DNA of 60,297 nucleotides, the filler included, from a candidate division TA06 bacterium SM23_40 (GTDB taxonomy: Bacteria; LJUI01; SM1-40), in NCBI GenBank assembly GCA_001303705.1. It is 7 parts of 7 records of this genome, joined end to end, with 100 filler letters (N's around TTAATTAATTAA, not from the genome) between each part and the next. Parts side by side here need not be neighbours in the genome. Positions count along the whole stretch, not along the records: positions 27,294 to 47,890 come from LJUI01000028.1; 6 more parts are not named here. One strand, written 5' to 3'. This document shows, one piece after another, positions 29,776-47,990 of this stretch; position 1 is the stretch's first letter; each line of letters begins with the position of its first letter. Below the pieces are notes generated by a model, which was given only the letters and a program-made list of their open reading frames with translations, made no database searches and was not told the DNA's origin. Position numbers and translations under genes: made by a program.

Positions 29776-29873
29776 GTTCGCTCCCCCCTTCGCTCTATTG
29801 CCCCGAATCCTGCTCTTTCCTCAGGGCCCGCCCGTGCTCGCAGGGATGACCGAGCAGCTGTGATCGCGATTGA

Positions 29874-32828
29874 TCACTTCTTCACTGGCAGCACCACCGT
29901 GAACTTGAAGCCGTCCTGGTCGAAGACGTTTCCGGGATGACCCACCATAGTCCTGAAGCCCCAGGTCCCGAGCAGACACTGGAGAGGCACCGTATACGAC
30001 CTCACGGCCTGAAAGTAGGAATCAGGCTTCATCTCGAGGTAGTGCGGCCCTTCGAGCGGGTTCCCGGGCCACGGCTGGCCGTTGGGCCGCCTGAGGAGAG
30101 CGATCCACCAGGTCGGCTGGGGCTCGTCATGGCAGTTCATGATCGTGTATACGACACTCCCGGTCTGTCCCGGAGCTACCGTCAGTGCCTGGACTGAGGC
30201 ATAGATGACGAGGGTTTTCGACTGATCGAGGGAGTGTGCTCCCATGTCGCACCTGGTGCCATCAGGATCGAGCGAATCAGGATGGCCTGCGTCGATGCAT
30301 GGGGATGGCCAGAGCAGCCGATAATCATCGAAGCTCGGCCAGACGAACCAGGGACTGGTGTCGATGTTCCCTTCGCCCCACGCGAGGAAGCAGCCAGGAT
30401 CGACATGGACTGCCGATGAGCCGCCCTCCACGTCAGTGAAGCTGATGCCGATCGCTCCGCTCTGGCGGAGGACGACTTCAGGGCCAATTCCTGCGTTGTC
30501 ACCCCAGAGGATGGAATTGGTGACATTCAAATAGGAGTCGTGGCAGGAGATGGCACCGCCTTCCGCAGCCGTATTCCCGGTGATGGTGTTCCTCACGAGG
30601 GTAGCTGGGCTTTCGCCCCAGCAGGAGATGCCCCCTCCGTAGGTGCCGGCATTCTCGCCGATCGTATTGCCCACTATCATCGGAGCGCAATACCCCAAGC
30701 ACGAAATGCCGCCGCCGTATGTGGCTTCATTCTCGGACACCGTATTGCTGATCACGATGCCATCGCTGTCTTCCCAGAAAGCGATACCCCCACCCCAGAC
30801 GGCATGGTTGTCGGTGATCATGTTCTCCACAATGATCGGGAAAGATTCCTCCTCAGCGGCTATCCCACCGCCGTCGATCTCCGCAGTGTTCTCCCGGATG
30901 ATATTCCCGGCAATCGTGGGTGAAGAACCGACGCAGTGAATCGCGCCGCCGCACGTCAGGGGCCATCCCCCCGTCACATACCCATTCTGAATCGTGAACC
31001 CGCGCACGACCGCGGTGGCCTCCTCCCCACTATAGAATCGAAACCCGCGATGGGGATCGAGCGAGCTCCCCTGACAGTCGATGATGGTCACCTCCGGGCC
31101 GTTCTCCGACATGACAACGATCGCCTTACCACCGAAGTCGATATCCCGGTTCCCGTAACCGGTGTACAGACCATCGGCGACTAGCACCGTATCTCCGGCC
31201 GCCGCCGAGTCGACCCCTGCCTGAATAGTAGGACACTCAGGGCTCGGCACGTGCCAGGTCCTCGGTACCATGGTGCCGATTGCCTCGAGGGCCTGAATCC
31301 GCCCCGCTCCATAGTCGTTGTCCTTCCCTGCCGGACCTCTGTCGAGCGCTGTCATCTCGATTATCGAATCGATCTCTGGAGGCGTGAGAGCCGAGTTGCA
31401 GGAGAGCAACAAGGCGATTAGCCCGGAATTGTGCGGAGCTGCCATGGATGTGCCGCTCCAGGTTTCGCCGCTGTATCCTCCTCCCATGATCGTGGAGTTG
31501 ATATTCACTCCCGGTGCGCAGATATCGGGATCGATCAGACCCATGCCCGGAGCGTATGGATAGTCATACCAGGGTGGAACCGACTGCCAACTGACCGGTC
31601 CGTTGGAGCTGAAGTACGCGTAGTCGTCATTGTAGTAACCGGTCGCTCCCACCGTCATCATCGAGTTGAGGCCGCCCTCGAGCGTCTGGCCGGGATGGAG
31701 CCAGGGAGGTGGCACGTCGCCGGGCGTCGTAATCACGTCCGGAGGCCAATAGGAGGGGCGCCCGCCGCCGCCAGAGAACGACAGTATGACATCTGCAGCC
31801 AGGGCATAGCTGCAGACATCCCGCCATGCCGCCCGGTCAGGAAGATGAATGAGGTGGTACCAACCGATCGACCCATGCAGGATATCCGCCCCCATGTCGA
31901 CCGCGTACTCGATCGCCTCCCAGACATTTGCCTCTTCGCCCCATCCCACCTCATCCAACACGCGAATCGCCATCAGGTGAGCCTCTGGTGCAACTCCCGT
32001 CAGCACGCCGCCTGTCCCATCCCCTGCTACTGTGCCGGAGACATGTGTGCCATGCCCGTTCTCATCGATCGGATCGGATGTGTGCGCATCGAAATTGAAC
32101 CCGTAGTAGTCGTCGATGTACCCATTCTCATCGTCGTCAATTCCGTTGTTCGGTATCTCCCCGAGATTCGTCCACATGTTGCCGGAAAGATCACTGTGGT
32201 AGTACCAGATTCCGGTGTCGATGATCGCAACGAGAACGCCCTGACCTCTGTACCCGAGTTCCCACACATCGTCAGCTCCGATCCACTGCACACCCCACGC
32301 CGTGTCCGACTGATGGGAGCGCGGAGCAAACGGCTCGATAGAATCAACTGATTCAGGTCTCTCCTGGAGGCCGGTCAAAGCGTACCCACGCGTGTTGTAC
32401 ATGATCGTCTCCACCTCAGGCAGCGCGGCAATCTCCCTCACCAGTGAGGACTGAGCGAGTAGACGGACCACATTGACTGCATGCAGATATCGGATGTCTC
32501 GAGCGCGTCCCAACGCGGCAGCCTCCTGCACGAGCGTGCGCAGCCGCGACTGGCTTTCTCTCGCGAAGGCCGTCGCCTCCTCCCGAATCACACGCCTTCC
32601 CTCTGTCTTGGGGAGACCAGTCGCTAGAGCGTGCAGGCCTTCGTAGTCGATTCTCTCCCTCATGATCACGCTGATCGAGATATGCCCATCATCGGCTGCC
32701 GCCTTCACCGTTTCCTGCAATGCGGGATCTGTTCTGCCCGCATATACCACGCCCCATAAGCCCGCGACCATCACCAGCGCGAGACACAGCACCGCGCACC
32801 ACATCCATCCGTCTTCTCTTCTGCACAT
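29874..32828 (-). CDS. Beta-helix array gene 9: S8 subtilase fused to beta-helix and type-B C-terminal domain
   Basis: Signal peptide; catalytic triad IIDTG, HGTHVSG, SGTSMA; then WHVPSPECPTIQAG and GGGI repeats; GGAGG RBS before ATG 32828. Confidence 0.88.
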   Translation of the reverse strand: MCRREDGWMWCAVLCLALVMVAGLWGVVYAGRTDPALQETVKAAADDGHISISVIMRERIDYEGLHALATGLPKTEGRRVIREEATAFARESQSRLRTLVQEAAALGRARDIRYLHAVNVVRLLAQSSLVREIAALPEVETIMYNTRGYALTGLQERPESVDSIEPFAPRSHQSDTAWGVQWIGADDVWELGYRGQGVLVAIIDTGIWYYHSDLSGNMWTNLGEIPNNGIDDDENGYIDDYYGFNFDAHTSDPIDENGHGTHVSGTVAGDGTGGVLTGVAPEAHLMAIRVLDEVGWGEEANVWEAIEYAVDMGADILHGSIGWYHLIHLPDRAAWRDVCSYALAADVILSFSGGGGRPSYWPPDVITTPGDVPPPWLHPGQTLEGGLNSMMTVGATGYYNDDYAYFSSNGPVSWQSVPPWYDYPYAPGMGLIDPDICAPGVNINSTIMGGGYSGETWSGTSMAAPHNSGLIALLLSCNSALTPPEIDSIIEMTALDRGPAGKDNDYGAGRIQALEAIGTMVPRTWHVPSPECPTIQAGVDSAAAGDTVLVADGLYTGYGNRDIDFGGKAIVVMSENGPEVTIIDCQGSSLDPHRGFRFYSGEEATAVVRGFTIQNGYVTGGWPLTCGGAIHCVGSSPTIAGNIIRENTAEIDGGGIAAEEESFPIIVENMITDNHAVWGGGIAFWEDSDGIVISNTVSENEATYGGGISCLGYCAPMIVGNTIGENAGTYGGGISCWGESPATLVRNTITGNTAAEGGAISCHDSYLNVTNSILWGDNAGIGPEVVLRQSGAIGISFTDVEGGSSAVHVDPGCFLAWGEGNIDTSPWFVWPSFDDYRLLWPSPCIDAGHPDSLDPDGTRCDMGAHSLDQSKTLVIYASVQALTVAPGQTGSVVYTIMNCHDEPQPTWWIALLRRPNGQPWPGNPLEGPHYLEMKPDSYFQAVRSYTVPLQCLLGTWGFRTMVGHPGNVFDQDGFKFTVVLPVKK

Positions 32829-32886
32829 CGCTTCCTCCCTCGTCCGTTCCCTCCAGATCCCCAATGCGGTTCTTCCTCGTCCTCGT

Positions 32887-34444
32887 CTACTCCACCGGCG
32901 GGGGCACGATCGCGAAACCGAAACTGTCCTCGTCGTAGACCATCGAGGGTGGCATCCCGATCCGGGACCCATACCCATACGCGCCGAGAGGCGCAGCCCC
33001 AGGCACCATGTGATGCAGGTGACGCTGCACCGTAGTATTCGCCGGCAGGGTGTATTGGTCGGGCCCGATGATAGTGAACGGGCTGCCATTCGGCAGGGTC
33101 GCCTCTGTCTGAACCCAGAACGGCTCCGCCTGTGGCCACCGGTTGATTGCCGTGTAGGTCACGCCTAGCATTGCTCCCGGGGACACTTCAGTCGTATCGG
33201 GTGTCAAGTACAGCGTCATGTAATCCTCCTGGTCGAAGAACTCCGCCCCCATGTCCCTCCGCGTCCCATCCGCGTCCAACGAGTCTGGATGCCCGGCGTC
33301 GATGCATGGCGACCCCCACAGCAATCGGTAGTCTCCCTTCTCGGCCAGCACAAACATCGGATCTGCGTCAATATTGCCCTCACCCGACCAGCCTCCTTCG
33401 ACGTCGCAATAGGCAACGACTAGTAATGTATCTCCATCGACTTCGATCTGGGATGGCGAGTCGCCCCAGAGGATGGAGTTAATGATAGACAGGGAACACG
33501 AGTAGCAATGAATCGCGCCGCCCTCCCCGAGGGTGACGGCGTTTCTGGTCATGGTATTTCCGTTGATCGTAAGAGAAGACGCATGACATAATATCCCGCC
33601 CCCGATCCGAGCCTCATTCCCGCTGATCGTGTTGCCACCGATCAGAGAAGAAGATCCCCACGGAAAGTACATTCCACCGCCCGCGAGCTCCCCTACATTC
33701 CCGCTGATCGTGTTTCCCACGATCACTGGACCGGACTCGTAGCAGTAGATTCCACCGCCATAATAGGCCTCATTTCCACTGATCCTGTTCCATGCGAGTG
33801 TTGGAAAGGACGCGTACAGGCAACATATTCCGCCGCCGCCACCGCGAGCCGAACCACTAGCACTAGCCGTATTCCCAGCAATCGTATTCCCCACGATCAT
33901 AGGAGAGGCATAGTCGCAGTAGACTCCGCCGCCCGCTCCCCGTAATCATGTTGCCTTCGATCCTGGGAGAAGACGAGTAGCAGTGGATTCCGCCGCCCCA
34001 CCCACTCAAGCCACCCGACGCCGTATTCCTGGTGATCCAGTTGCCTGCGATCGTGGGAGAGGCGTAGTCGCATCGCATTCCGCCGCCGCGGTAGGCAAAT
34101 CCGTTCTGAACCGTAAATCCCCGGAGCACCGAACTCAAGTCCTCCCCGCTATGGAAGAAGAATCCTCGGTGCGGATCCAGTGAATCTCCCTCACAATCGA
34201 CAACTGTCACCTCAGGCCCATTCTCGGAGATCACAACAATCGCCTTGCCCAGAAAGTCGATGTCCCGGTTCCCGTCACCCGTATACGTCCCATCAGCCAC
34301 CAGCACCGTGTCACCCTCAACTGCGGCATCGATCCCTGCCTGGATAGTCGGATACTCGCCCGGCACGTGGAGAACCGTTGCCGAGACTCCCGCACATAGC
34401 AAGAGAGTCAGGGCAGCACCCAGCAAAGTCGTGAACCGTGTCAT
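32887..34444 (-). pseudogene. Beta-helix array gene 8 (type-A C-terminal domain), single frameshift ~33935
   Basis: N-half in ORF 33863-34489 (MTRFTTLLG...VLHVPGEYPTIQAG), C-half in ORF 32887-33900; the break falls within a GGG repeat. Confidence 0.8.
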
Positions 34445-34513
34445 GATATTTCTCTCCGTTGGACCCCAGCGGTGATCACCATGCCCCAATGTGATTCCAG
34501 CCAGTTGTCTCGA

Positions 34514-36073
34514 CTACGGTTCAACCAGCGTGAACGTGAAGCTGTCCTCATCATAGAGTGTCGAGGGCGGTACGCCGATGCGAACCCGGTACCCATACAG
34601 ACCGAGCGGCACTCCGAATGGCAGGTTCCGAGCCGTGTGACGCTGCACGGTGAAATCGGGTGGCAGAGAATACGGTCCCTGCGTGCTAGTCGAGGTGTTA
34701 CCGTTGGGTAGCGTGACTCGCGTACGCATCCACAAGGTCTCTGGCTGTGCCCAGCGATTGATGAGGGTGAAGGTCAATCCGAACTGGCCACCTGGGACGA
34801 TCTCGGTCGCGTCCGGCGTCAGGTACAGCGTCATGTAGTCGTCCTGATCGAAGAAGTGCGCCCCCATGTCGCTGCGTGTACCGTCTGGGTCCAGGGAATC
34901 CGGGTGCCCAGCGTCAATGCACGGGGATTCCCAAAGGAGGCGGTAGTCTTGTTTGTCGGCCAGTACAAACATCGGATCTGCGTCGATATTGCCCACGCCC
35001 TCCCAACCGCCTTCTATGTCCGAGTAGGTGATGGCGATCGAGCTTGTACCCGCCAAACATATCTCGTGGTCGATCCCGGCACTGTCTCCCCACAGAACGC
35101 AATTGAGGGCCGTAGCCGAGGATTCGCCGAGGTAGATTCCACCACCCCAGCCTTTGGCCGTGTTTCCCGTGACTGTGTTTCGCCTCATCAACGAAGCGGA
35201 ATAGTGACAGTATATTCCCCCTCCGTCCTCGCCCGCGGCATTGTCGCTGATGATGTTGCCCACGACGCTCGGACAAGCTTCGCTCGAACAGATTCCCGCC
35301 CCCCAGACGGCCGTATTTCCGGCGATCGCGTTGGCTTCGATAGTGACAGTAGTGGGAGAATCCGAGCACCATATCCCACCACCAGAAACTATGGCTGTGT
35401 TCGCTTCGATTGTGTTGCCCTTGATGGTCGGGGAACACCATTGGCTATGAATCCCACCGCCCCAGCCGGCCGTATTCCCCGTGACCGCGTTGCCCTCAAT
35501 GATCCCTGAACAGTCATAACAGAAGATCCCGCCGCCATTCCACCCGACCATATTCCCGGAGATCGTGTTCCCCTTGATGGTCGCAGAAGAGGCATAACAG
35601 TAAATCCCCCCGCCATTCGACTCGGCCGCATTCGCCGTGATCCTGTTCCCCTTGATCGTGGGAGAAGAGGAATAGCAGAGTATGCCCCCACCATTGTCCT
35701 GCGGGAAGAGTCCATCGGCACCACAGCCGTTGCGAATCGAGAAGCCCTTCACTGCCGATGTGGAGTCCTCTCCAGAGTGGAAATAGAACCCCCGATGGGG
35801 ATCGAGTGAGTCGGCCTCACAGTCAATAATCGTCACTTCCGGCCCGTTCTCCGACATCACGACCATGTTCACCCCACCGAAATCCAGATCGCGGTTCCCC
35901 TCGCCGGTGTAGATCCCATCAGCAACCAGCACCGTGTCACCCCCAACTGCGGCGTCGATCCCTGCCTGGATCGTGGGATACTCCCCCGGTACATGCAGAA
36001 CCGTCGCCGTGGCACTCGTGCCTGCTGCTGCGACGAGTGCTCCACACATCAGAATCGCCAATCGCTTTGTCAC
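34514..36073 (-). CDS. Beta-helix array gene 7, intact (type-A C-terminal domain)
   Basis: Signal peptide, VLHVPGEYPTIQAG, GGGIxC/GNTIxGNxA repeats (Pmp-like), DYRLLWESPCIDAG. Confidence 0.88.
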   Translation of the reverse strand: MTKRLAILMCGALVAAAGTSATATVLHVPGEYPTIQAGIDAAVGGDTVLVADGIYTGEGNRDLDFGGVNMVVMSENGPEVTIIDCEADSLDPHRGFYFHSGEDSTSAVKGFSIRNGCGADGLFPQDNGGGILCYSSSPTIKGNRITANAAESNGGGIYCYASSATIKGNTISGNMVGWNGGGIFCYDCSGIIEGNAVTGNTAGWGGGIHSQWCSPTIKGNTIEANTAIVSGGGIWCSDSPTTVTIEANAIAGNTAVWGAGICSSEACPSVVGNIISDNAAGEDGGGIYCHYSASLMRRNTVTGNTAKGWGGGIYLGESSATALNCVLWGDSAGIDHEICLAGTSSIAITYSDIEGGWEGVGNIDADPMFVLADKQDYRLLWESPCIDAGHPDSLDPDGTRSDMGAHFFDQDDYMTLYLTPDATEIVPGGQFGLTFTLINRWAQPETLWMRTRVTLPNGNTSTSTQGPYSLPPDFTVQRHTARNLPFGVPLGLYGYRVRIGVPPSTLYDEDSFTFTLVEP

Positions 36074-36132
36074 TTGCTCTCCCCCTCTCTATGCTCCCTT
36101 TGTATCCTCCCGCGCTCGTCTCATGATGCATC

Positions 36133-36927
36133 CTATGCATCGAGCAGATCGGCGCGCAGAACCGTGACGGCTCTTCCTCCCAGATGGACACGGTCGCCCG
36201 CAACGCGGACCCGCACGATCCCGCCGCGTGCGGATGCCTGGTACCCGACCAACTCATTCTTCCCCAACCGCTCGGCCCAGAATGGGCCAAGACAACAGTG
36301 GGCCGATCCCGTCACCGGATCCTCGTCGATTCCGGCCCGCGGGGCGAAGAACCGCGACACGAAGTCGTACGCGGCGGAGCTGGCCTCGCTGGTGACCATG
36401 ACACCCCGTATCTCCAGCGTCTTCAGTTTGCCGAAATCCGGTGCCAGGCTCCGGACTGCTTCTTCAGATTCTACCTCAACAAGATAGTCGTAAGTGCTTT
36501 TGCCAAAGGACTTCGGTGTGATGCCAAACGCCTCCGGGAGTCCAGGCGGAATGTCCGTCGGGCTCGGCGGAGTTGCGGGAAAGCTGAGCTCGATCTCGTC
36601 TCCCCTCCGCTCCGCAGTGAGTAACCCGCTCTGCGTATGGAATCGAGCTCGCTCCCTTGGTCCGAGCAGGCCGATCTCCCACAGAATGTGAGCGCTCGCC
36701 AGGGTCGCGTGCCCGCAGAGCTCGACTTCCACAGCAGGAGTGAACCAGCGCAAGTCAAACCCGTCCTCCTGCCTGACCAGAAAGGCCGTCTCGGATAGGT
36801 TCATCTCCCGCGCAACATTCCGCATCCACGTCTCGTCCCGGGCCTCGGGCAGTATGCAGACCGCAGCCGGGTTGCCCTTGAACGGTTTGTCTGTGAAGGC
36901 GTCGACCTGGTAGATCCTGAGCCCCAT
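36133..36927 (-). CDS. PhzF-family isomerase/epimerase
   Basis: QVDAFTDKPFKGNPAAV, NLSETAF, ELCGHATLA, EDPVTGSAH. Confidence 0.92.
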   Translation of the reverse strand: MGLRIYQVDAFTDKPFKGNPAAVCILPEARDETWMRNVAREMNLSETAFLVRQEDGFDLRWFTPAVEVELCGHATLASAHILWEIGLLGPRERARFHTQSGLLTAERRGDEIELSFPATPPSPTDIPPGLPEAFGITPKSFGKSTYDYLVEVESEEAVRSLAPDFGKLKTLEIRGVMVTSEASSAAYDFVSRFFAPRAGIDEDPVTGSAHCCLGPFWAERLGKNELVGYQASARGGIVRVRVAGDRVHLGGRAVTVLRADLLDA

Positions 36928-37140
36928 ATCGTTTCTCCCTGACAGGCGTGTTATGGACGCCGACCTTACAGCCGAAGGCGTCACTGTTAGGAGCCAGGTT
37001 GCGGCTGTGGTGGTATCTCCAGGTAGTGCTCCCGCTCCAGCGGGTCGAGGCCGGACGATGGCCCACCTCCGGGGGATTCTCACTATCGCCACGCACTGAC
37101 GACGAGCCGTACCCCGACCAGGGAGCCGCTGCTCGCGTAT

Positions 37141-38900
37141 CTACGGCTCCGCCACCGTAAACAAGATGCGCTCACTGTCGAAGAGGTTGCCGGGCATCCC
37201 GACCTTCCAGGTTAACCCGGTGGTGCCGAGCGGCCACGGCCCGGGCAGCGTGTACTCCCGAACGTACTGCCAGTTGAACCCGGGCGGCATAACACCGTAC
37301 CCAGGCCCCTCGAGCGGATTCCCGGGCCACGGCTCTCCGTCGGGCAGGGTCAACTCAACGATGCCTCGAGCAGGCTGCGGGTCGCCATGGCAGTTGACCA
37401 ACGTGCACAGCATCTGCACGGTCTGTCCTGGATGCAGAGTATGAACCTCGGGGGATGCATACGCCACGAGCGTCTTCGCCTGGTCGAAAAAGTACGCACC
37501 CATGTCCCTCCGCGTGCCATCCGGGTCAAGAGAATCGAGGTGGCCGGCATCGACGCAGGGTGATCCCCAGAGCAGGCGACAGTCGTTCCGACCCCCCGTG
37601 ACAAACATCGGGTCCGCGTCGATATTACCTTCCCCCCAGTTCAAGGTGCACCCAGGGGCTACGTACACTCCCAATGACCCACCTGAGACATCGGAATAGT
37701 CGACCCTGATCGCACTCACAGACCAATAGTAATGCTCCAGATAGATTTCCGGGCCCACGTCGGCGCTGTCTGCCCAGAGGATCGAATTGAGTACGGCCGG
37801 GGATGAGCAATACGTGGCATATATCGCACCACCTTCATCGGCCACGTTGCGGGTAATGGTGTTGCCCGTTATTACTGGACACGAGTGGTAACGGCACTTG
37901 ATCCCGCCACCTTTCCAGGAGCTCGTATTCCCCACAATCGTATTGCCAACGATGGTCGGAGAAGAGCGCACAAAGCAATAGATCCCACCGGCATCCTGGG
38001 CCGTATTCTCCCCGATCGTGTTGCCCCTGATGATAGGAGAGCACTCCTCACAATTGATCCCGCCGCCAAAGCTGGCTGAATTTCTCATGATCATGTTGCT
38101 GACAATTGCCGCCGGAGAGTGATCAAAGCACTTGATCCCAGCCCCTCTGTGCGCCCAGTTCTCCGCTATCACATTGCTTTCGATAGTCGGAGTTGAATAG
38201 CTCGAGGCGTGGATCCCCCCACCGTCGTGACTAGCTCCATTCCCCACAATCGTGTTGCCGACGATTGTCGGAGAACCGTGATCATAGCAGGTCCCCAGTC
38301 GGCCACATTCCCTCTGATGGTATTCCCAGCGATAGTGGCAGAGGAATAGGTGCAATAAACCCCTCCTCCGCCGCATTCGGCCGTATTCCCTGTGATCGTG
38401 TTGTCGGTGAGGATGGCAGAGCCGTGCTCGCACGAGACCCCGCCACCCCATCAGGCCGAGCCATTCTCCGTAATGGTGTTGCCCACGATGGTGGGAGACG
38501 AGTTGTCGCAGCGGATGCCACCGCCGACAAACTTCGGCCACGGCCCGGCCGCGTACCCGTTCCGAATCGTGAACCCCTGTACGACCGCGGTCGAATCCTC
38601 CCCACTGTGGAAGTAAAATCCACGATGCGAATCGAGCGAATCTCCCTCACAGTCGATGCTGGTTACCTCGGGACCGTTCTCCGACATCACAACCATGTTA
38701 ACGCCGCCGAAGTCCAGGTCCCGGTTCCCGCCACCCGTGTAGGTCCCGTCGGCAACCAGGACTGTGTCACCCTCAGCTGCGGCATCGATCCCCGCCTGGA
38801 TGGTCGGATACTCGCCGGGGACGTGCAGAACCGTTCCCGAGACCACCACGCACAGCCAGAGGATGAGGCTCGCGCCGAGCAAACCTATCAACCGGTTCAT
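37141..38900 (-). pseudogene. Beta-helix array gene 6 (type-B C-terminal domain), nonsense codon plus frameshift
   Basis: In-frame TGA at 38451-38453 (NGSA*WGGGVSC); frameshift ~38292 where a GGGI motif is lost; remainder in ORF 37141-38541. Confidence 0.8.
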
Positions 38901-38936
38901 GGTATTCCTTTCATTCGAAAGACAGCCGCCATCACT

Positions 38937-38951
38937 ATGCTATCATAGCAT
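38937..38951. promoter_or_regulatory. Intergenic palindrome ATGCTAT-C-ATAGCAT
   Basis: Perfect 7-1-7 inverted repeat; the homologous copy at 40467-40481 shows a compensatory change. Confidence 0.5.
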
Positions 38952-38969
38952 TTCGCCGGTAGCGCCCTG

Positions 38970-40430
38970 CTAGGGCCCTACCACTATGAACGCGAAGCTG
39001 TCATCATCGTAGAGTGTCGATGGCGGCACCCCGATCCGGGACCCATACCCATACATCCCGAACGGCGCGAGCCCGGGCACTATGTGATTGAGGTGACGCT
39101 GCTCGGTGTGATTCGCCGGCAGGGCATACTGGTCCGGACCCATCACACGGAACGGAGTGCCGTTCGGGAGGGTTGCCTCCGTCAGCACCCAGAACGGCTC
39201 AGGTTGTGCCCAGCGGTTGATTACCGTATACGTCACTCCAAGCACCTCTCCGGGAGAGACCTCCATCGTATCCGGCGTCAGATAGAGCGTCATATAATCG
39301 TCCTGGTCGAAGAAGCGCGCACCCATGTCGCTGCGTGTGCCGTCGGGATCGAGAGAGTCCGGATGCCCTGCGTCGATACACGGTGAACCCCAGAGCAGTC
39401 GATAGTCTCCGCTATTGGGCAGGACAAACATGGGATCGTCATCCAGGTTTCCTTCGCCCCAGTAGAGATTGCAGTTGAGACCCACGTATACCGCAGACGA
39501 GCCGCCCTCGACGTCGCTGAACTCGACGGTGATCGAGCTCGCACTTCCACTGTAATCATCGAGGTATATCTCCAGCCCAGAGATCGCGCTGTCTGCCCAT
39601 AGTACAGAGTTCATTAGGATGGCTGAACAGTAGTAACAGTAGATACCGCCGCCGTACAGACCGCCTGCATTCCTGCTAATCGTATTGCCCATAATCGTCG
39701 CGAGAGACCCGACCCAGCACGAAATCCCCCCGCCGTGCCTGCGGGCCGCGTTCGCAGCGATCGTGTTCGCAGCGATATCCGGCGAACAGTACATCCCACA
39801 ATGGATCCCGCCGCCACCGAAAGCCCCGTTGCCCGTAATGGTGTTGCCCCGGATCGTTGGCGCACATAAATAATTGAGGCAGATCCCGCCGCCCCCACCG
39901 TAGGTCCCCAACACGTTCTCTGCAATTCTGTTCGCCACGATTTGTGGAGATGATTCGTAACAGAAGATGCCGCCTCCGCCCAATTCGGCCCTATTTCCAG
40001 TGATGCTGTTGCCTACGATCGTGGGCGAGGAATTCCAGCAGATGATGGCGCCACCAGAGCCCTGCGAAGATTCTCCGTACGCATACCCGCCTCGTATCGT
40101 GAACCCTTGTACCACAGAGTTCGGGCCCTCTCCATGTGTGAAGTAGAAACCTCGGTGCGGGTCCTCGTGGGTACCCTGACAATCGATAATCGTCACCTCA
40201 GGCCCGTTCTCCGACATAACAACAATCGCCTTGCCCAAGAAGTCGATGTCCCGGTTTCCCGTACCAGTGTAGGTACCGTCGGCTACGAGCACCGTGTCAC
40301 CCTCACCTGCGGCGTCGATCCCCGCCTGGATGGTCGGATACTGGCCCGGGACGTGCAGAACCGTCGCCGAGGCCACCGCGCACAGCCAGAGGATGAGGCT
40401 CGGGCCGAGCAGACCCATCAACCGGTTCAT
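38970..40430 (-). CDS. Beta-helix array gene 5, intact (type-A)
   Basis: MNRLMGLLG signal, AAAGGA-like RBS region, GGGIxC repeats, LYLTPDT...INRWAQPEPFW domain. Confidence 0.88.
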   Translation of the reverse strand: MNRLMGLLGPSLILWLCAVASATVLHVPGQYPTIQAGIDAAGEGDTVLVADGTYTGTGNRDIDFLGKAIVVMSENGPEVTIIDCQGTHEDPHRGFYFTHGEGPNSVVQGFTIRGGYAYGESSQGSGGAIICWNSSPTIVGNSITGNRAELGGGGIFCYESSPQIVANRIAENVLGTYGGGGGICLNYLCAPTIRGNTITGNGAFGGGGIHCGMYCSPDIAANTIAANAARRHGGGISCWVGSLATIMGNTISRNAGGLYGGGIYCYYCSAILMNSVLWADSAISGLEIYLDDYSGSASSITVEFSDVEGGSSAVYVGLNCNLYWGEGNLDDDPMFVLPNSGDYRLLWGSPCIDAGHPDSLDPDGTRSDMGARFFDQDDYMTLYLTPDTMEVSPGEVLGVTYTVINRWAQPEPFWVLTEATLPNGTPFRVMGPDQYALPANHTEQRHLNHIVPGLAPFGMYGYGSRIGVPPSTLYDDDSFAFIVVGP

Positions 40431-40466
40431 GGTATTCCTCTCATTCAAAAGACAGCCGCTAACACT

Positions 40467-40481
40467 ATGCTGTCACAGCAT
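40467..40481. promoter_or_regulatory. Intergenic palindrome ATGCTGT-C-ACAGCAT
   Basis: Same position relative to the start codon as 38937-38951; paired A>G/T>C substitution keeps the symmetry. Confidence 0.5.
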
Positions 40482-40499
40482 TCCGCCGGAACAGCCCTG

Positions 40500-42053
40500 C
40501 TAGGGCCCTACCACTATGAATGCGAAGCTGTCCTCATCATAGAGTGTCGATGGCGGCACCCCGATCCGGGACCCATACCCATACAGACCGAGAGGCGCAG
40601 CCCCAGGCACTATGTGATTCAGGTGACGCTGCTCGGTGTGATTCGCCGGCAGCGCATAGTGAGCCGGACCCATCACAGGGAACGGATTGCCATTCGGGAG
40701 GGTTGCCTCGGTGAGCACCCAGAACGGCTCAGGTTGTGCCCAGCGGTTAATGGCAGTGTAGGTGACTCCAAGGACACCTCCCCGCGTGACCTCTAGCGTA
40801 TCTGGTGTAAGGTAGAGTGTCAGGTAGTCGTCCTGGTCGAAGAAGTGCGCACCCATGTCGCTGCGTGTGCCGTCGGGATCTGTGTAGTCGGGATCTCCCG
40901 AATCGACGCACGGTGATCCCCAGAGAAGGCGGTAGTCGTTCTTATCGGCCAGCAGGAACAGGGGATCTGCTTCGATATTCCCCGCCCCTTGCCAGCCGCC
41001 CTCCACGTCACAGTAGGTCACATCGATCGAACTCGTCTCGTCCACGTAGATCTCCTGATCGGTGGCGGCGCTGTCGGCCCAGAGCACCGTATTGAAGACG
41101 ATCGGCGAACAGGCCCAATAGCAGCAGATCCCCCCGCCGAGGGCCGCCCTGTTGGCCGTAACGGTATTCGCCTTGATGACCGGCATCGCGTGATAGTAGC
41201 AATAGATGCCGCCGCCCTCGTCGGCTGTATTCTCGACAATGGTGTTCCTCTCGGCTATTGGTGACGAGTCAGAGCAGTACATCCCCCCACCGGTGAACGC
41301 CGCAGTATTGCCCGAGATCGTGTTCAACCTGATCACACCCGAACAGGTGTAGTCATAGAAGACCCCGCCGCCATAGAAGTCAGCCGTATTCCCGGTGATC
41401 GTATTCCCCTCGATAGTCGGCGCCGAGAGGTGGTACACACAGAGCCCTCCGCCGCTGTGATGTGCTGTGTTCGCAGTGATGGTGTTTCCTTGGATCGTCG
41501 GCCAGGAGTCGATACAGCAGATCCCGCTGCCACTGTACGTCGATGTGTTCCCGGCGACTATGTTCGCCCTGATGATCGCTGCCGAGGCACCATCACAGAA
41601 GATGCCCCCTCCATTGTAGGCTGCTGAGTTACCGGTGATGATATTCCCCTCAATGCTCGGTGATGACCCGAGACAGTAGATGCCGCCCCCATCGTACACC
41701 TCTATGTGTCCATTCGTGATCGTCAACCCCTGCACCACTGAGCTCGCGTCCTCGCCGCTGTGGAAGACGAAGCCACGGTGTGGGTCTGCGGCGCTCCCCT
41801 CACAGTCGATGATCGTCACCTCCGGACCGTTCTCCGACATCACGACCATGTTGACGCCACCGAAGTCGAGGTCCCGGTTTCCATCACCGCTGTAGGTGCC
41901 GTCGGCAACCAGGACCGTATCGTTGTCCACTGCGGCGTTGATACCCGCCTGAATGGTCGGATACTCGCCCGGGACGCGGAGAACTGTCGCCCAAACAGAC
42001 AAGGCATATCCCAGAACGAGGCTTCCGCACAGCAATAGTATCATCCTCCTCAT
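40500..42053 (-). CDS. Beta-helix array gene 4, intact (type-A)
   Basis: GGAGGAGG RBS, MRRMILLLCG signal, same architecture as neighbours. Confidence 0.88.
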   Translation of the reverse strand: MRRMILLLCGSLVLGYALSVWATVLRVPGEYPTIQAGINAAVDNDTVLVADGTYSGDGNRDLDFGGVNMVVMSENGPEVTIIDCEGSAADPHRGFVFHSGEDASSVVQGLTITNGHIEVYDGGGIYCLGSSPSIEGNIITGNSAAYNGGGIFCDGASAAIIRANIVAGNTSTYSGSGICCIDSWPTIQGNTITANTAHHSGGGLCVYHLSAPTIEGNTITGNTADFYGGGVFYDYTCSGVIRLNTISGNTAAFTGGGMYCSDSSPIAERNTIVENTADEGGGIYCYYHAMPVIKANTVTANRAALGGGICCYWACSPIVFNTVLWADSAATDQEIYVDETSSIDVTYCDVEGGWQGAGNIEADPLFLLADKNDYRLLWGSPCVDSGDPDYTDPDGTRSDMGAHFFDQDDYLTLYLTPDTLEVTRGGVLGVTYTAINRWAQPEPFWVLTEATLPNGNPFPVMGPAHYALPANHTEQRHLNHIVPGAAPLGLYGYGSRIGVPPSTLYDEDSFAFIVVGP

Positions 42054-42119
42054 CGTCCCTCCTCCCCCTGTCATAGTCTTCTCTGACCGCGAAAAGGAGA
42101 ACACATCGAAGCACCTTCC

Positions 42120-43592
42120 CTACTCAAACGGCGGCGGCACGATCGCGAACTCAAAGCAACCCTCGGCCCAGATCGACCCGGGATGGGCCCCAGTCCGAAC
42201 GCACAATCTGTAGGGGCTCCCATACGGCGCAACCTCCGGTATGTGCACGCGCTGCCGCACACCATACACACCGTAGTTGCTACCGACCACAAACTCGACA
42301 GGCCCGATGACTGGATTGCCCGCATAAGGGTTGCCGCTCAGAAGGTATCCATCGGCCCAGGCCTCAAAGATCAGAGTGCTATCTGTGAAGTTGATAAGAT
42401 CGACGGCGAACCGCAGGTCCTGTCCGGGGGGGATGTGAGTGGTGTCTGGTATCACCTGGACCGCCAGAAAGCTTGCATAGTGGAATCCCATATCCGTGCG
42501 CCAGACATCCCAGACGCCGTCCGTTCTCGTTGTCCCTCTGGGAATGACCGATTCCGGATTCCCGGTGTCGACACACGGGCTCTCTTCCGGCTGACCAGCG
42601 ACTGTCTGGCTCAGGTACCAGTCCCAGAGCGGACCGGAGACAAATAGCGGATTGGCATCGATGTTGCCTTCGCCTGGCCATCCCCCCTGTACATCGGAAT
42701 ACGTCACTGTGACATCGCTGTATATCCCCAGTGCGATCTCCGAGGGGACATCTGCCCACAGGATGCAGTTGGCGATCGTGGGGGTGGAGGAGGCCGTGAA
42801 AAAGGCGCCGCCGCCATCCTCGATGACGGTATTACGCGTAATCGTATTACCCACTATCTCCGGAGACGACATGAAGCAGAATAGACCCCCGCCGTACTCA
42901 GCCGTGTTGTTCGCAATCAGGTTGTCGACGATAGTCGGAGAAGAAGAGGAGCAATAGATGCCCCCTCCATACACATCAACCGCATTTGCCACAATGACAT
43001 TTCCTTCGATGGTCGCGGAGCAGTCGAGTCGGCAGAAGATCGCACCGCCTCGATTAGCGGTATTCTGGGCAATAGTGTTATGCTTGATGCTCGGCGATAC
43101 GCTACCCCTGCAATAGATGCCTCCGCCTAGACCTTCCTCACCGACTGCCGCATTCTCCACCATTCTGTTGCGTTCGATTGTTGGCGCCGCGTGATCACAG
43201 AAGACCGCACCACCTCCGAAGTCCTCTGGCGGGGGCCTGTAGGCATACCCGTTCGTTATCGTGAATCCTCGCAGGACGGAGCTAGATCCCTCCGCGCTGT
43301 GGAAATGGAATCCGCGGTGAGGATCGAGCTGGCTTGCCTGGCAATCGATGATGACGGCTTCCGGCCCGTTCTCGGACGTCACCAGGATCGCTTTACCATT
43401 GAAGTCAACGTCGCGGTTCCCCTCACCGGTGTATGTGCCGTCCGCCACGAGCACCGTATCTCCGTCCACAGCGGAATAAATCCCGGCCTGAATCGTCGGA
43501 TACTCGCTCGGCACGCGTAGAACTGCCGCCAACGCGTTCTCCTGCAGCACGAGCATCTGAACCGCACACAACATCACGACCAGTCTTCTCAT
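42120..43592 (-). CDS. Beta-helix array gene 3, intact (type-C C-terminal domain)
   Basis: MRRLVVMLC signal; WYLSQTVAGQ...GTTRTD...DMGFHY linker; IPDT...NFTDSTL...APYG domain. Confidence 0.86.
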   Translation of the reverse strand: MRRLVVMLCAVQMLVLQENALAAVLRVPSEYPTIQAGIYSAVDGDTVLVADGTYTGEGNRDVDFNGKAILVTSENGPEAVIIDCQASQLDPHRGFHFHSAEGSSSVLRGFTITNGYAYRPPPEDFGGGAVFCDHAAPTIERNRMVENAAVGEEGLGGGIYCRGSVSPSIKHNTIAQNTANRGGAIFCRLDCSATIEGNVIVANAVDVYGGGIYCSSSSPTIVDNLIANNTAEYGGGLFCFMSSPEIVGNTITRNTVIEDGGGAFFTASSTPTIANCILWADVPSEIALGIYSDVTVTYSDVQGGWPGEGNIDANPLFVSGPLWDWYLSQTVAGQPEESPCVDTGNPESVIPRGTTRTDGVWDVWRTDMGFHYASFLAVQVIPDTTHIPPGQDLRFAVDLINFTDSTLIFEAWADGYLLSGNPYAGNPVIGPVEFVVGSNYGVYGVRQRVHIPEVAPYGSPYRLCVRTGAHPGSIWAEGCFEFAIVPPPFE

Positions 43593-43746
43593 CGTCTCGT
43601 TCTGCTTGTTACGCCCTTGTTCCGCCCGATCGGGGTGTACTACCACTGTGCAGGTGCGTACGCCAGGACGCAAAGCACAAGTGCTCCATTACGAGTAGGG
43701 ACGACATAATGCTTTGGAACCCGGATCCGAGAGCCCCGCCCATTGC

Positions 43747-45747
43747 CTATTCTCGAGACGGCGGGAGGATGTCGAAGACGAAACAGGCCTCCGCCGAGAC
43801 TGAGTCGGCATGGACCCCGGCCCGAACGCACAGTGCGTAGGGCCCCCCGTAAGGCGCCTGTACCGGTATACGCACCGACCGCCGCACACCGTTGAAGCCG
43901 CAACCACCGCCCAAGCTGAGTTCCACAACACCCAGCACGGGATTAGCTGCGTACGGATTGCTGGTGGGCAGATAGGCGTCAGCCCAGGCGTCGAATGTCA
44001 GTGTGCTATCTGTCACGTTCACCATGTCGACAGTGAACCACAGTTCCTCGCCGCGATGCACCTGGTGTGTATCGGGAATCGCGCGAATGGATAGCACACT
44101 CGGGTAATGGTAGCCCATATCCACAGGCCAGAAGTCCCATCTATGATCGGTCCTCGTAGTTCCCTGCGGCAGAGCCGAAGTGGGATCTCCTGTATCGACG
44201 CAAGGGCTTTGCTGTGACTGTCCCGCGGCGATCTGGCTCAGAAAGTAGTCGCTCCCAAAGCCCACCACGAAGAGAGGGTCCGCGTCGATATTTCCTTCAC
44301 CAGGCCAGCCTCCCTGCACATCAGAGTAGGTCACTGCAACCGAGCCGCCGTACCCTACTTCGATTTCCGAAGGACTGTCTGCCCATACGATTGAATTGGC
44401 CAGCGTCACGGACGAGCCACTACCGGCGCAGTAGATCGCCCCACCCTCCTCAGCTGCATTCCCGGTCAGGGTGGTGTACCTTACAAGCGCAGAGGACCCG
44501 CTGTAGCAGCAGATCCCACCGCCCCGGTACGCCCCCACGTTCAGAGCCACAGTGTTGTCGTCGAGTATTACCGAAGAGGAGAGCTCGCAGTACATCCCTC
44601 CACCACGATCCCCGGCATGGTTCTCGATTATCGTGTTCCAGATAACGGTCGGGGAAGCGTAAGAACGGCACATGATCCCACCGCCACAATTGTAGGCTAC
44701 GTTCTCCGCAATCGCATTATGGGACACAGTCGGATAGGAGTATTCACGACATTCGATTGCAGCTCCCCAGGAGGCAGCGTTTCCCGTCATCGTGTTGCCG
44801 TGAATAAGCGGAGAAGAATGGTCATGGCAATCGATACCAGCCCCGCGATAGCCGTTATTCCCGACGATGGTGTTGCGCTCAATGGTCGGCGACGAGCTTA
44901 TGCAGCAAATCCCCGCGCCGCTACTGTCCGCCCAATTGCTCGTGATTGCATTAGCCATGATCGGTGCTGAAGACTGCATAGTGCAGTAGATCCCGCCGCC
45001 GTTGCCGGCCGAGTTATCCGAGATCGTGTTCCCTTCGATCGTCGGGGAAGATTCCGAGCAGTGCACGCCGCCGCCATCTCCGCTGGCCGTATTCGCTGTG
45101 ATGGCGTTCTGCTGAATGAGGGGAGAAGAGTGGTTACAGCTGTAGATCCCTCCACCGTGGTTCAAGTGTGCTATGTTCCAGGTAATCGTGTTGTTTCTGA
45201 TCGTTGGAGAGCCGTCGTCGCAGTACACTCCCCCACCCCAGCCCGCCCCATTCGCTACAATCATGTTGCCATTGATGACGGGAGACGCCTCGTTACAGCA
45301 ATAGACCGCTCCGCCGCGAGTAGCCGTATTCCCCGTAAACGTGTTGCCGACAATAGTCGGCGAAGCCTGATCACAGCGAACGGCGCCTCCCTCGGGAACC
45401 CATCCATTAATGATCTGGAACCCGTGGAGCACGGAGGCTGAGGTCTCCCCACTACGAAAGTGGAACCCGCGATGCCAATCCGAGCCACTACCCTGGCAGT
45501 CGATGGCGGTCGCCTGTGGCCCGTTTTGCGAGGTCACGATAATAGACTTGCCGAGAAAGTCGATATCCCTGTTTCCCTCGCCGGTGTAGATCCCGTCAGC
45601 CACCAACACGGTGTCCCCGGTGCCTGCCGCATAGATTCCGGCCTGAACGGTTGGATATTCACTCGGTACACGTAGAATGGTGGCCGACACACTGAAACAG
45701 AGCCGAAGGGTCATGCATGTACCCACCAGTATCACGGCTCTCTTCAC
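43747..45747 (-). CDS. Beta-helix array gene 2, intact, longest repeat core (type-C)
   Basis: GTG 45747 overlapping the upstream stop (GTGA); ~13 GGxIxC repeats; YFLSQIAAGQ...GTTRTD linker. Confidence 0.86.
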   Translation of the reverse strand: MKRAVILVGTCMTLRLCFSVSATILRVPSEYPTVQAGIYAAGTGDTVLVADGIYTGEGNRDIDFLGKSIIVTSQNGPQATAIDCQGSGSDWHRGFHFRSGETSASVLHGFQIINGWVPEGGAVRCDQASPTIVGNTFTGNTATRGGAVYCCNEASPVINGNMIVANGAGWGGGVYCDDGSPTIRNNTITWNIAHLNHGGGIYSCNHSSPLIQQNAITANTASGDGGGVHCSESSPTIEGNTISDNSAGNGGGIYCTMQSSAPIMANAITSNWADSSGAGICCISSSPTIERNTIVGNNGYRGAGIDCHDHSSPLIHGNTMTGNAASWGAAIECREYSYPTVSHNAIAENVAYNCGGGIMCRSYASPTVIWNTIIENHAGDRGGGMYCELSSSVILDDNTVALNVGAYRGGGICCYSGSSALVRYTTLTGNAAEEGGAIYCAGSGSSVTLANSIVWADSPSEIEVGYGGSVAVTYSDVQGGWPGEGNIDADPLFVVGFGSDYFLSQIAAGQSQQSPCVDTGDPTSALPQGTTRTDHRWDFWPVDMGYHYPSVLSIRAIPDTHQVHRGEELWFTVDMVNVTDSTLTFDAWADAYLPTSNPYAANPVLGVVELSLGGGCGFNGVRRSVRIPVQAPYGGPYALCVRAGVHADSVSAEACFVFDILPPSRE

Positions 45748-47624
45748 TCTCGTCTCCCTTCGACGCGAAACCTCGAGGGCTCGTCCCACGAGCCTCTGTG
45801 CTCAACCTGAACTCCTCGCCGGGATGTTGGTGTGACGATACAGGTGAACTCGTCCTGGTCGTACACTATTGGTGGCACCCCTATGCCGGACCGATACCTG
45901 TAGGTGCCCAGAGGGGCCCCCAGTGGCACGTAATGACGAATGTGACACAGCGAGATCGTATTACCAGGCAATACGTGTTGGATCGGCCCGCCCACACTCA
46001 GGGTATCCCCGTTGGGCAGGATCGCCTGTGAAGCCAACCAGAACGACTCCGGGTGCGCCCACCGATTTATTACGGTATACGTGATACCGAGGAAGGTACC
46101 ACGGGCAACTGCTCTGCGGTGTCGCGTCAAGTACAATGTAAGGTAGTCGGTCTGGTCAAAGAAGTGACCTCCTATGTCGCTTCGCGTCATGTCTGGATCG
46201 AGCGAGTCCGGGTGCCCTGAGTCGATGCACGGTGAGTGCCACAGGAGGCGGTAGTCCCCCTTCGCGGTAAGCACGAACATCGGGTCATAGTCTCTATTCC
46301 CCTCTCCCCACATCACGGTGCAGCCTGGGGCAACGTATGTCGAAAAGACACGATTCTCCGTGTTGCAGTAGCTGATGCTCGTTGAACTCTGCTCCCGTAG
46401 GCAGAGTTCCTTGCCCAGACATCCGCTGTCGCCGCGAAGGATGCTGTTCATGATAGTCAACGAAGTAGACCAGCAGTAGATACCCCCGCCCTCCCCGCTG
46501 GCGAGGTTCTTTGTAATCGTATTGCTGTACAGACTCCCAGAGGCGCCTCGGAAGCCGATTCCACCACCTGTCCCGTAAGAGCTGTTCCCGGTGATCGTGT
46601 TACCGCGGATAGTCGCGGAGGAACTGCGACAACGAATCCCACCGCCGTCCTCCGTAGCACTGTTACCCGAGATGGTATTGTACAGAATAGTCGAGGAAGA
46701 ACTCTGAGAACAGACAATCCCACCGCCACTCCCGTTGTAGACCATGTTTCGTATGATCGTGTTATCCGTCACCGTCGCCGACGATACTTCACAACAGATC
46801 CCGCCGCCACGCTTATCTGCACCATTCTCGAGTATGGTATTTCCGGCGATGACCGCAGAGCCGTACCAGCAGTGGATCCCGCCGCCATAGTCGGCCACAT
46901 TCCATTGGACGAAGTTATCCTGGATCACCGCGGAAGACTGATAGATGCAAATCGCGCCACCATGGCCGCCATAAGGCCCAGGGGCTGCATTGCCACTGAA
47001 CGTGTTCCCAGCGATGACAGGGCACGACTGCAATTCGGAGAAGAGACCGCCGCCGTCGTAGGCGCTGTTCTCCGTTAGTGTGTTGCCAACAACAGCGGGA
47101 GATGAGTGATTGCAGTATATCGCCCCCCCGTAATTGGCGACATTACAGGTGATCACGTTATCAGCGATTCTGGCAGAACAATTCCACTCGCAAGCGATTC
47201 CGCCTCCGTTGTCGCCGGCGTTGTCGCGGATGATGTTATCCATGATCGTCGGCGAGGAGCCCCAGCAATAGATCCCCGTGTCATGAGCATTGGTGATAGT
47301 GAAGCCACGCACCACGGAGCTTGAGTCCTCGCCGCTGTGGAAGTAGAGCCCCCGGCAGGCGATGTCTCTACAGTCGATTACTGTGGCCTCCGGACCGCTC
47401 TCGGACATGAGAACGATTGCCTTCCCACCGAAATCGATATCGTAGTTCCCGGGACCGAAGTACGTGCCGCTCGCCACCAGTACCGTGTCTCCTTCCATCG
47501 CGGCATTGACTCCCGCCTGGATGGTTGGATAAACCTGCGGCACACGGATGACTGTTGCAGGAGCGGCGGAAACGAGGCAGGCCGCGGCAACACCTATCGC
47601 CGCGCCTAGTCTGATGCCGTTCAT
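45744..47624 (-). CDS. Beta-helix array gene 1, intact, promoter-proximal (type-A)
   Basis: MNGIRLGAAIG signal, GGGAG RBS, VIRVPQVYPTIQAG, GGGIxC repeats, INRWAHPESFW domain. Confidence 0.88.
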   Translation of the reverse strand: MNGIRLGAAIGVAAACLVSAAPATVIRVPQVYPTIQAGVNAAMEGDTVLVASGTYFGPGNYDIDFGGKAIVLMSESGPEATVIDCRDIACRGLYFHSGEDSSSVVRGFTITNAHDTGIYCWGSSPTIMDNIIRDNAGDNGGGIACEWNCSARIADNVITCNVANYGGAIYCNHSSPAVVGNTLTENSAYDGGGLFSELQSCPVIAGNTFSGNAAPGPYGGHGGAICIYQSSAVIQDNFVQWNVADYGGGIHCWYGSAVIAGNTILENGADKRGGGICCEVSSATVTDNTIIRNMVYNGSGGGIVCSQSSSSTILYNTISGNSATEDGGGIRCRSSSATIRGNTITGNSSYGTGGGIGFRGASGSLYSNTITKNLASGEGGGIYCWSTSLTIMNSILRGDSGCLGKELCLREQSSTSISYCNTENRVFSTYVAPGCTVMWGEGNRDYDPMFVLTAKGDYRLLWHSPCIDSGHPDSLDPDMTRSDIGGHFFDQTDYLTLYLTRHRRAVARGTFLGITYTVINRWAHPESFWLASQAILPNGDTLSVGGPIQHVLPGNTISLCHIRHYVPLGAPLGTYRYRSGIGVPPIVYDQDEFTCIVTPTSRRGVQVEHRGSWDEPSRFRVEGRRE

Positions 47625-47664
47625 CTCGCTGACTCCCTTCCGGGTCCCGGAGGCTTCCCCGAAA

Positions 47665-47702
47665 TAGCAAAAGAGCGACCCCTGACGCTCGGTGTCGCTC
47701 CC
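47665..47702 (-). terminator. Terminator-like hairpin inside the 5' leader of the array (attenuator)
   Basis: GAGCGAC-14 nt-GTCGCTC followed by TTTTGCTATTT on minus, ~45 nt before ATG 47624. Confidence 0.6.
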
Positions 47703-47806
47703 GAAGAGCCTACTTAAGCGGTTTCATCCCACGCCTATTCCCGAGGCCACCGGGCGTTGTCTGCCGGTCACTGCCGGCAGACATCTCGGGAATCTCGTAT
47801 CTATCT
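47703..47806 (-). ncRNA. Candidate structured cis-regulatory leader RNA (family not recognised)
   Basis: 9-bp outer stem ATTCCCGAG/CTCGGGAAT, 10-bp inner hairpin TGTCTGCCGG/CCGGCAGACA, crossing ACGCC/GGCGT pairing; lies between promoter and terminator. Confidence 0.5.
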
Positions 47807-47812
47807 CGTGTG

Positions 47813-47841
47813 ATTATACACCCTTTCGGCAGGCTGGTCAA
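47813..47841 (-). promoter_or_regulatory. Sigma70 promoter of the beta-helix array
   Basis: TTGACC-17 bp-TATAAT on the minus strand. Confidence 0.75.
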
Positions 47842-47890
47842 GGCAAATCCACAGCACTGCCCCCACCTCACCCGGATAGGCGCCCAAACC

Positions 47891-47990
47891 NNNNNNNNNN
47901 NNNNNNNNNNNNNNNNNNNNNNNNNNNNNNNNNNTTAATTAATTAANNNNNNNNNNNNNNNNNNNNNNNNNNNNNNNNNNNNNNNNNNNN
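47891..47990. other. Artificial contig linker
   Basis: N44-TTAATTAATTAA-N44. Confidence 0.98.

Follow-up and report, generated by a model that had tools for sequence, protein, structure and literature searches.

The minus-strand leader at 47625-47841 of the window (the whole stretch of DNA analysed here, 60,297 nt, filler included) lies at the head of a long array of beta-helix genes. It raises the question of whether the RNA is a regulatory element and, if so, of what kind. An earlier note on this DNA had described it as an aptamer plus expression platform that belongs either to a new riboswitch or to a processive-antitermination element. Positions 27294-47890 of the window are one contig of a 2.88-Mb, 189-contig genome that is 89.8% complete. 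The contig is followed by a 100-nt artificial spacer (47891-47990: 44 N, TTAATTAATTAA, 44 N), so the DNA and genes on the far side of it are not true genome neighbours, and the promoter of the leader lies only 49 nt from the contig end.

All elements of the leader were found on the minus strand, where the earlier note had placed them. The promoter that it had read as TTGACC-17-TATAAT is present at 47841-47813: the -35 hexamer TTGACC (47836-47841) and the -10 hexamer TATAAT (47813-47818) are separated by 17 nt and match 11 of the 12 consensus positions. This is the top promoter-like site in the ~19 kb between 28800 and 47890, a region where promoter-like and terminator-like sites occur at the level seen in shuffled sequence. 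From the position of the -10 box we infer that transcription begins ~7 nt beyond it, near 47806. At the other end of the leader, a Shine-Dalgarno-like GGGAG (47633-47637), read directly from the sequence, precedes an ATG at 47624, which lies 39 nt past the terminator hairpin and U tract. The ATG opens the first gene of the array (45744-47624, minus strand), for which the ORF and a domain match indicate a 626-aa right-handed beta-helix protein with a signal-peptide-like N-terminus.

A leader family ahead of genes for predicted exported proteins

When the window leader was compared with its own genome by blastn, five further copies were found, with 73–78% identity. A covariance model built from these six copies detected nine copies in the genome at E ≤ 1.6e-10. 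The same nine, and no further full ones, were returned by a second model made from ten sequences and by nhmmer --max with its filters off. A pattern scan of metagenome contigs gave 35 loci, 12 of which match the leader model; 11 of these have bit scores identical to those of the own-genome copies, indicating that they come from the same population, and the remaining one (L043:769-912) is a new variant, which we count as the tenth copy. Two weak metagenome loci (E 0.12 and 0.13) and 21 others were set aside as chance matches in G+C-rich coding DNA. The leader is thus a member of an undescribed family of structured leader RNAs, ~150 nt long, with nine genome copies and one variant. All ten copies are from one organism or population and are not independent.

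The conserved unit is well delimited. Mean pairwise identity is 74% among the leaders, 57% over the initial 600 nt of each downstream gene and 52% over the 150 nt upstream of the promoter, where the shuffled baseline is 51%; conservation spans the promoter to the U tract and then stops. The leaders C185a, C185b and C160 are 86–89% identical, and the genes downstream of them are unrelated. The promoter belongs to the unit. A TTGACA-type -35 hexamer stands at the equivalent aligned position in eight of the ten copies, and eight of ten combine such a hexamer with a TAnnnT -10 box at the same aligned place and a 17-nt spacer; copies other than that of the window have TAGACT, TAAACT, TACACT or TAGAAT as the -10 sequence, also with the 17-nt spacer. 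A few bases before the -35 hexamer of C185a, C185b, C160 and L043 we observed a conserved hairpin of 14 bp with a T-rich run after it (for example, L005:1403-1450). It resembles a terminator that would end the preceding unit, and these four leaders may be located in insulated cassettes.

Two further places in the genome, C2:2189-2322 and C163:10970-11048 (G000), gave weak matches that cover the terminator-like half only and lie before unrelated genes, and they are not counted as copies. Their stem and loop sequence is similar to that of the leaders, which may mean either that they are copies in decay or that the terminators simply resemble each other.

We compared the leader with the 4227 models of Rfam 15. 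At the gathering score there was no match anywhere in the window. When the search was relaxed to E ≤ 10 and applied to 491 nt of sequence, to the 158-nt leader and to 176 nt of C160, it returned only chance hits, to eukaryotic, viral or small-RNA families, and no match at E ≤ 5 fell at the leader position in the nine other loci. The earlier note had not recognised the conserved cores of c-di-GMP, c-di-AMP, SAM, TPP or cobalamin riboswitches, and this agrees with the absence of any matching family among the covariance models of Rfam 15. At E ≤ 0.1 no c-di-GMP riboswitch (RF01051, RF01786) was detected in the 89.8%-complete genome, where one search covered 150 of 205 first-look candidates, and no TPP riboswitch was found in the same genome. 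A weak Acido-Lenti-1 match, with 24.9 bits against a gathering score of 37 and E 0.073, occurs at L010:1276-1322 (G000:C185), in the interval that separates a 179-aa ORF from leader C185b.

The compared set has no second genome from this phylum. Leader homologues were absent from the part of the first-look candidates that was scored in 60 sampled genomes, and from the 100–150 of thousands of candidates followed up both in the five genomes with the closest beta-helix proteins and in three candidate phyla (7, 31 and 14 genomes). In a loose pattern scan of the genome collection, none of 80 loci among the matches listed fits the leader model. One weak hit, in G058 (E 0.0017), was rejected as it lies inside a 666-aa ORF. 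DNA contigs from metagenome runs carry paralogous cores that map to 47683-47756, and in two estuary runs they also contain loose ends that resemble further variants of the terminator 3' arm, suggesting that relatives of the leader probably exist in these data. Within the searches made, the family appears to be known from one lineage only. Among the papers listed by full-text searching, no description of such a leader was found; a survey of candidate structured-RNA motifs was published in 2010 (PMC2864571).

As judged from sequence, every copy precedes a gene for a predicted exported protein. The ten downstream proteins comprise seven right-handed beta-helix proteins, one FG-GAP protein, one with a weak BNR_2 match and one without a Pfam match. 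The last of these is a putative lipoprotein of 310 aa with a lipobox-like N-terminus; the BNR_2 match, which is below the cutoff, belongs to the L043 gene, whose product has Asp-box-like repeats. All ten N-termini are signal-peptide-like when judged by eye. The genes on the upstream side are unrelated housekeeping genes (dihydroorotate dehydrogenase, aromatic amino-acid lyase, adenosine deaminase, hydrogenase subunit), indicating that each leader starts a new transcription unit. The genome has 63 Beta_helix domain matches on many contigs, and the leader therefore heads some of the beta-helix arrays, not all. The gene behind the copy C79 has a TAG at the position of the Gln codon of PTIQAG in its paralogues (L062:1700-1830; G000:C79:10700-10830), and it is possibly a pseudogene or the site of a sequencing error.

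Conserved fold and alternative complementarity

A 9-bp outer stem, an inner hairpin and, just before the ribosome-binding site, a terminator hairpin with its U tract had been proposed in the earlier note, and the comparison of copies bears out all three. The outer stem, P1, is formed by the 5' arm AUUCCCGAG (47785-47793) and the 3' arm CUCGGGAAU (47737-47745), which fold prediction pairs over 9 bp as 47793-47785 with 47745-47737. P1 is 93% paired over the ten copies, and two of its pairs are changed on both sides. The inner hairpin, P2 (47782-47759), has a conserved base and a variable tip and loop; it is 96% paired over the ten copies, with five pairs changed on both sides. Between P2 and the 3' arm of P1 lies the most conserved block of the alignment, the invariant core ACGCCCGGUGGC (47746-47757), which can fold on itself into a 3-bp hairpin, P3 (GCC/GGC), or else supply the 5' strand (47757-47748) of a candidate alternative helix, AT1. 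A variable linker (47703-47736) follows. It includes a conserved AACMGCU-type box for which neither a scan of column pairs nor inspection of the alignment of the ten copies revealed a consistent pairing partner.

The terminator 5' arm GGGAGCGAC (47694-47702) pairs with 47679-47671, and the 3' arm and U tract together occupy 47661-47679; in the window copy the stem is followed by UUUUGCUAUUU, and the U tract runs to 47661. A G+C-rich stem thus passes directly into a U tract, as in an intrinsic terminator. The 9-bp stem is 98.9% paired over the ten copies, and six of its nine pairs vary yet stay paired. At least four U residues come directly after the stem in eight of ten copies, and the tract is weaker in C168 (CUCUUG) and C79 (UUUUGUAC). 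Variation in the leader is found in P2 (at its tip and in its loop), in the linker and in some of the terminator loop, whose sequence is otherwise nearly invariant in the ten copies.

Taken alone, the window copy folds only moderately better than chance, with a z-score of -1.96 for 47625-47815 and of -2.89 from the inferred start to the U tract; its opposite strand folds too (z -3.94). The weight of the evidence is carried by the comparison of copies, in which the earlier note had proposed to test covariation. In the model-fitted alignment of the ten copies, which is biased towards the model, P1, P2, P3 and the terminator are together 96.1% paired, and eight pairs have changes in both partners. 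None of 500 shuffles came up to the alignment in any of five measures, and slid registers gave 45–57% pairing. P1, P2 and the terminator all have compensatory changes. In a structure-blind MAFFT alignment of the same copies, these helices are 93.6% paired and six pairs are changed on both sides; 5 of 500 shuffles have at least as many such pairs, and none of 500 attains the covariation score. The frequent G-U pairs, for example in the base of P2 and in the terminator, become A-C on the other strand and fit the minus strand only. Covariation supports a conserved structured, aptamer-like domain, the sequences compared being paralogues of one lineage.

The earlier note had also seen a crossing pairing between ACGCC and GGCGU. 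It is present in the window copy but not conserved: GGCGU is exact in only two of the ten copies (the window and C128) and partial in C28. The conserved partner of the ACGCC-containing core is instead the terminator loop. A scan of all column pairs revealed that the core sequence ACGCCCGGUG (47757-47748) is complementary to CACCGAGCGU (47694-47685), which consists of the last base of the terminator 5' arm and the adjoining loop and would be the 3' strand of AT1. This complementarity is found in ten of ten copies and extends over ten positions with one constant C-A mismatch. At one position two copies have U-A in place of C-G and one copy (C168) has a mismatch, and two positions change on one side only. 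AT1 is conserved complementarity, not proven pairing: its covariation is not significant, with 101 of 500 shuffles reaching the observed pairing, because its columns hardly vary. An ordinary terminator needs no invariant loop, and pairing of the loop with the core in AT1 would account for the near-invariance. The second alternative helix, AT2, would join the 3' arm of P1 to the foot of the terminator (47705-47700); it is 88% paired, and none of its pairs is changed on both sides. Some truncated folds also join the 5' tail to the terminator loop in a helix, which was rejected because its register is not consistent.

In nested folding, the AT1 helix excludes both P1 and the terminator. We compared folds forced into the AT1-containing state (ON) with folds forced into the P1-plus-terminator state (OFF), and obtained differences of -3.5 to +7.5 kcal/mol for full-length leaders and of -7.2 to +2.9 kcal/mol at the decision point, in transcripts that end just past the loop strand. 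The unconstrained minimum-energy fold contains AT1 in two of ten full-length leaders and in four of ten truncated ones. By these calculations, the two folds are predicted to be nearly isoenergetic in all ten copies. Alternatively, AT1 could form as a tertiary pseudoknot while P1 and the terminator are both in place, or it could be a binding site for a protein.

Models of control

A model of control that fits this structure is as follows. The first ~60 nt of the transcript would fold into a compact three-way junction, in which P1 closes P2 and the 3-bp P3 with the invariant GCCCGGUGGC core. The intrinsic terminator would form some 40 nt past the junction, and 25–39 nt beyond it would come the ribosome-binding site and start codon of a gene for an exported protein. 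The RNA could adopt either of two mutually exclusive nested folds. In the OFF fold, P1, P2, P3 and the terminator would coexist, and transcription would stop in the U tract. In the ON fold, P1 would be open, the core strand would pair with the terminator loop (AT1) and the 3' arm of P1 with the terminator foot (AT2), so that the terminator 5' arm would be enclosed and the polymerase would read into the gene. On this modelling, the leader probably alternates between a fold that ends transcription and one that allows read-through, and thereby controls genes for secreted surface proteins. The earlier description as an aptamer plus expression platform is a fair one, since an aptamer-like domain and an intrinsic terminator are accompanied by conserved alternative complementarity of the antiterminator type.

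What would set the choice between the folds is a separate matter. The junction domain would most likely bind a small molecule and act as an OFF switch of the riboswitch type. We tentatively favour a lineage-specific family of cis-acting attenuators that sense a metabolite in the manner of riboswitches, with a hypothetical effector, and we put this reading somewhat short of an even chance. A signalling nucleotide is a reasonable guess for the ligand because the regulon consists of surface proteins, and the genome has nine genes with GGDEF domains. The more specific proposal is rather doubtful: a new riboswitch class, perhaps with a signalling-nucleotide ligand, that uses a platform of core and terminator loop to govern at least ten secreted beta-helix, FG-GAP and Asp-box-like units.

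The same two-state attenuator may instead be set by an RNA-binding protein or an RNA acting in trans, with no metabolite involved, the factor binding either to the junction domain or to the two invariant strands, core and loop. Such control would draw on the same structural evidence. In addition, a ~60-nt junction with a 3-bp P3 is small for an aptamer, the two invariant 10-nt blocks could be protein sites, and confinement to one lineage is as expected of a lineage-specific regulator. However, no candidate regulator gene is linked to any copy, the upstream genes being the unrelated housekeeping genes listed above. The ANTAR domain (PF03861) had no match in the genome, in a search that matched none of 14 control genomes either. 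We consider a factor acting in trans unlikely on balance, though a serious competitor to metabolite sensing.

Both of these explanations place the leader in cis to the gene behind it. Alternatively, the copies could be about ten paralogous small RNA genes of ~150 nt, each with its own promoter and terminator, that act in trans and stand where they do by chance. In each copy a strong promoter and an intrinsic terminator do bracket a structured RNA, and terminated riboswitch transcripts that act in trans have been described. However, nine of nine genome copies have the same orientation as the next gene, which encodes a predicted exported protein. Moreover, in eight of nine the start codon, with a Shine-Dalgarno-like site, lies 25–39 nt past the U tract, a gap that leaves no room for a separate promoter, so that the gene needs read-through. 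The ninth, C79, is the most divergent copy; it has a poor U tract and is located 238 nt upstream of a beta-helix gene. A conserved fold that competes with the terminator would also be purposeless in a plain small RNA. We regard this explanation as improbable.

We give similarly little credence to a duplicated cassette of promoter and leader that does not switch and serves for fixed leaky termination, mRNA stabilisation or insulation. Such a cassette would agree with the terminator-like hairpin that, in four of ten copies, seems to end the preceding unit shortly before the -35 hexamer, and spread within one genome could reflect duplication. Against it, the leader copies differ by up to ~35% and have kept their pairings through compensatory changes, together with an invariant core and terminator loop, suggesting selection on more than a hairpin. 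The near-equal predicted energies of the two folds in all ten copies also argue against it, and inspection of the alignment revealed no inverted terminal repeats at the unit ends.

The other proposal of the earlier note was processive antitermination, in which RNA polymerase would be modified by the leader RNA, with or without a NusG paralog, so that it passes the terminators of a very long operon. The window copy does head at least ten co-directional genes over ~17.7 kb. Downstream of the first gene, the minus-strand array (29874-45789) includes at least nine further beta-helix-type ORFs, among them an S8 peptidase–beta-helix fusion, and a PhzF-like gene. No second minus-strand promoter-like site with at least 10 of 12 consensus positions was found in 28800-47890, which is suggestive only of what is possibly a single operon. 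Two details of the array concern its gene calls. As called, its first and second beta-helix ORFs share 46 nt (45744-45789), and the start of the second is probably placed too far upstream. The beta-helix gene at 37141-38969 (minus strand) starts near 38900 (MNRLIGLL...VLHVPGEYPTIQAGID) and has one in-frame stop (TGA) before WGGGVSC, so ORF callers split it.

Despite the length of this array, processive antitermination is very improbable. A search for NusG paralogs, which the earlier note had suggested looking for, found one NGN (NusG, PF02357) gene only in the 89.8%-complete genome, and the controls were matched in 10 of 14 genomes. No Rfam family matches the leader, and Rfam includes the EAR and JUMPstart elements. 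Some units are short: that headed by C185a is only ~2 kb long and ends at a terminator-like hairpin and the next leader. The conserved feature of the family is, besides, an internal terminator with a competing fold. Ribosome-mediated attenuation through a leader peptide is unlikely because the copies share no leader ORF in frame and length, and the window copy has none with a Shine-Dalgarno-like site.

If the leader is a switch, it marks the regulon by which an uncultured sediment bacterium deploys a large set of secreted beta-helix proteins, and it would be a candidate orphan riboswitch with an unusual loop-embedded antiterminator. It also offers an experimental handle, an RNA of ~150 nt that can be tested in vitro, on a lineage in which nothing can be grown. 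Occurrence in one lineage limits its general importance until relatives or a ligand are found.

Relation to known systems

The leader family is undescribed, and the kind to which it would belong, riboswitch-like attenuators, is already known. Rfam 15 holds candidate structured-RNA motifs from comparative genomics of metagenomes. The leader resembles these motifs in being conserved, intergenic and discovered through comparison, and shares their setting, here upstream of secreted-protein genes in uncultured bacteria; in contrast to those motifs, it is matched by none of the 4227 models.

The leaders on which LoaP, RfaH and UpxY act and the EAR RNA provide processive antitermination ahead of surface-structure genes. 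Like them, the present element is a structured 5' leader, and its window copy heads a long array. Unlike them, it has no Rfam match and no NusG paralog was found in its genome; some copies head short units, and the element holds what would be its own regulated terminator.

Another parallel is provided by the c-di-GMP riboswitches of classes I and II, which use terminator platforms upstream of genes for adhesins and surface proteins. As with these riboswitches, the leader is present in several copies per genome and has a promoter-proximal domain of the junction type followed by an intrinsic terminator. Its downstream genes likewise encode predicted secreted surface proteins, in a genome with the nine GGDEF genes mentioned above. 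It differs from them in matching neither RF01051 nor RF01786 and in having a third helix of only 3 bp.

With generic terminator/antiterminator platforms the leader shares a P1 3' strand that has an alternative partner beside the terminator, and two folds predicted to be nearly isoenergetic. Unlike in those platforms, its main antiterminator strand would lie in the terminator loop and not in the 5' arm, so that the terminator would be blocked by enclosure of its 5' arm and not by direct competition for the stem. This loop-embedded layout, unproven as it is, would be an unusual one among attenuators.
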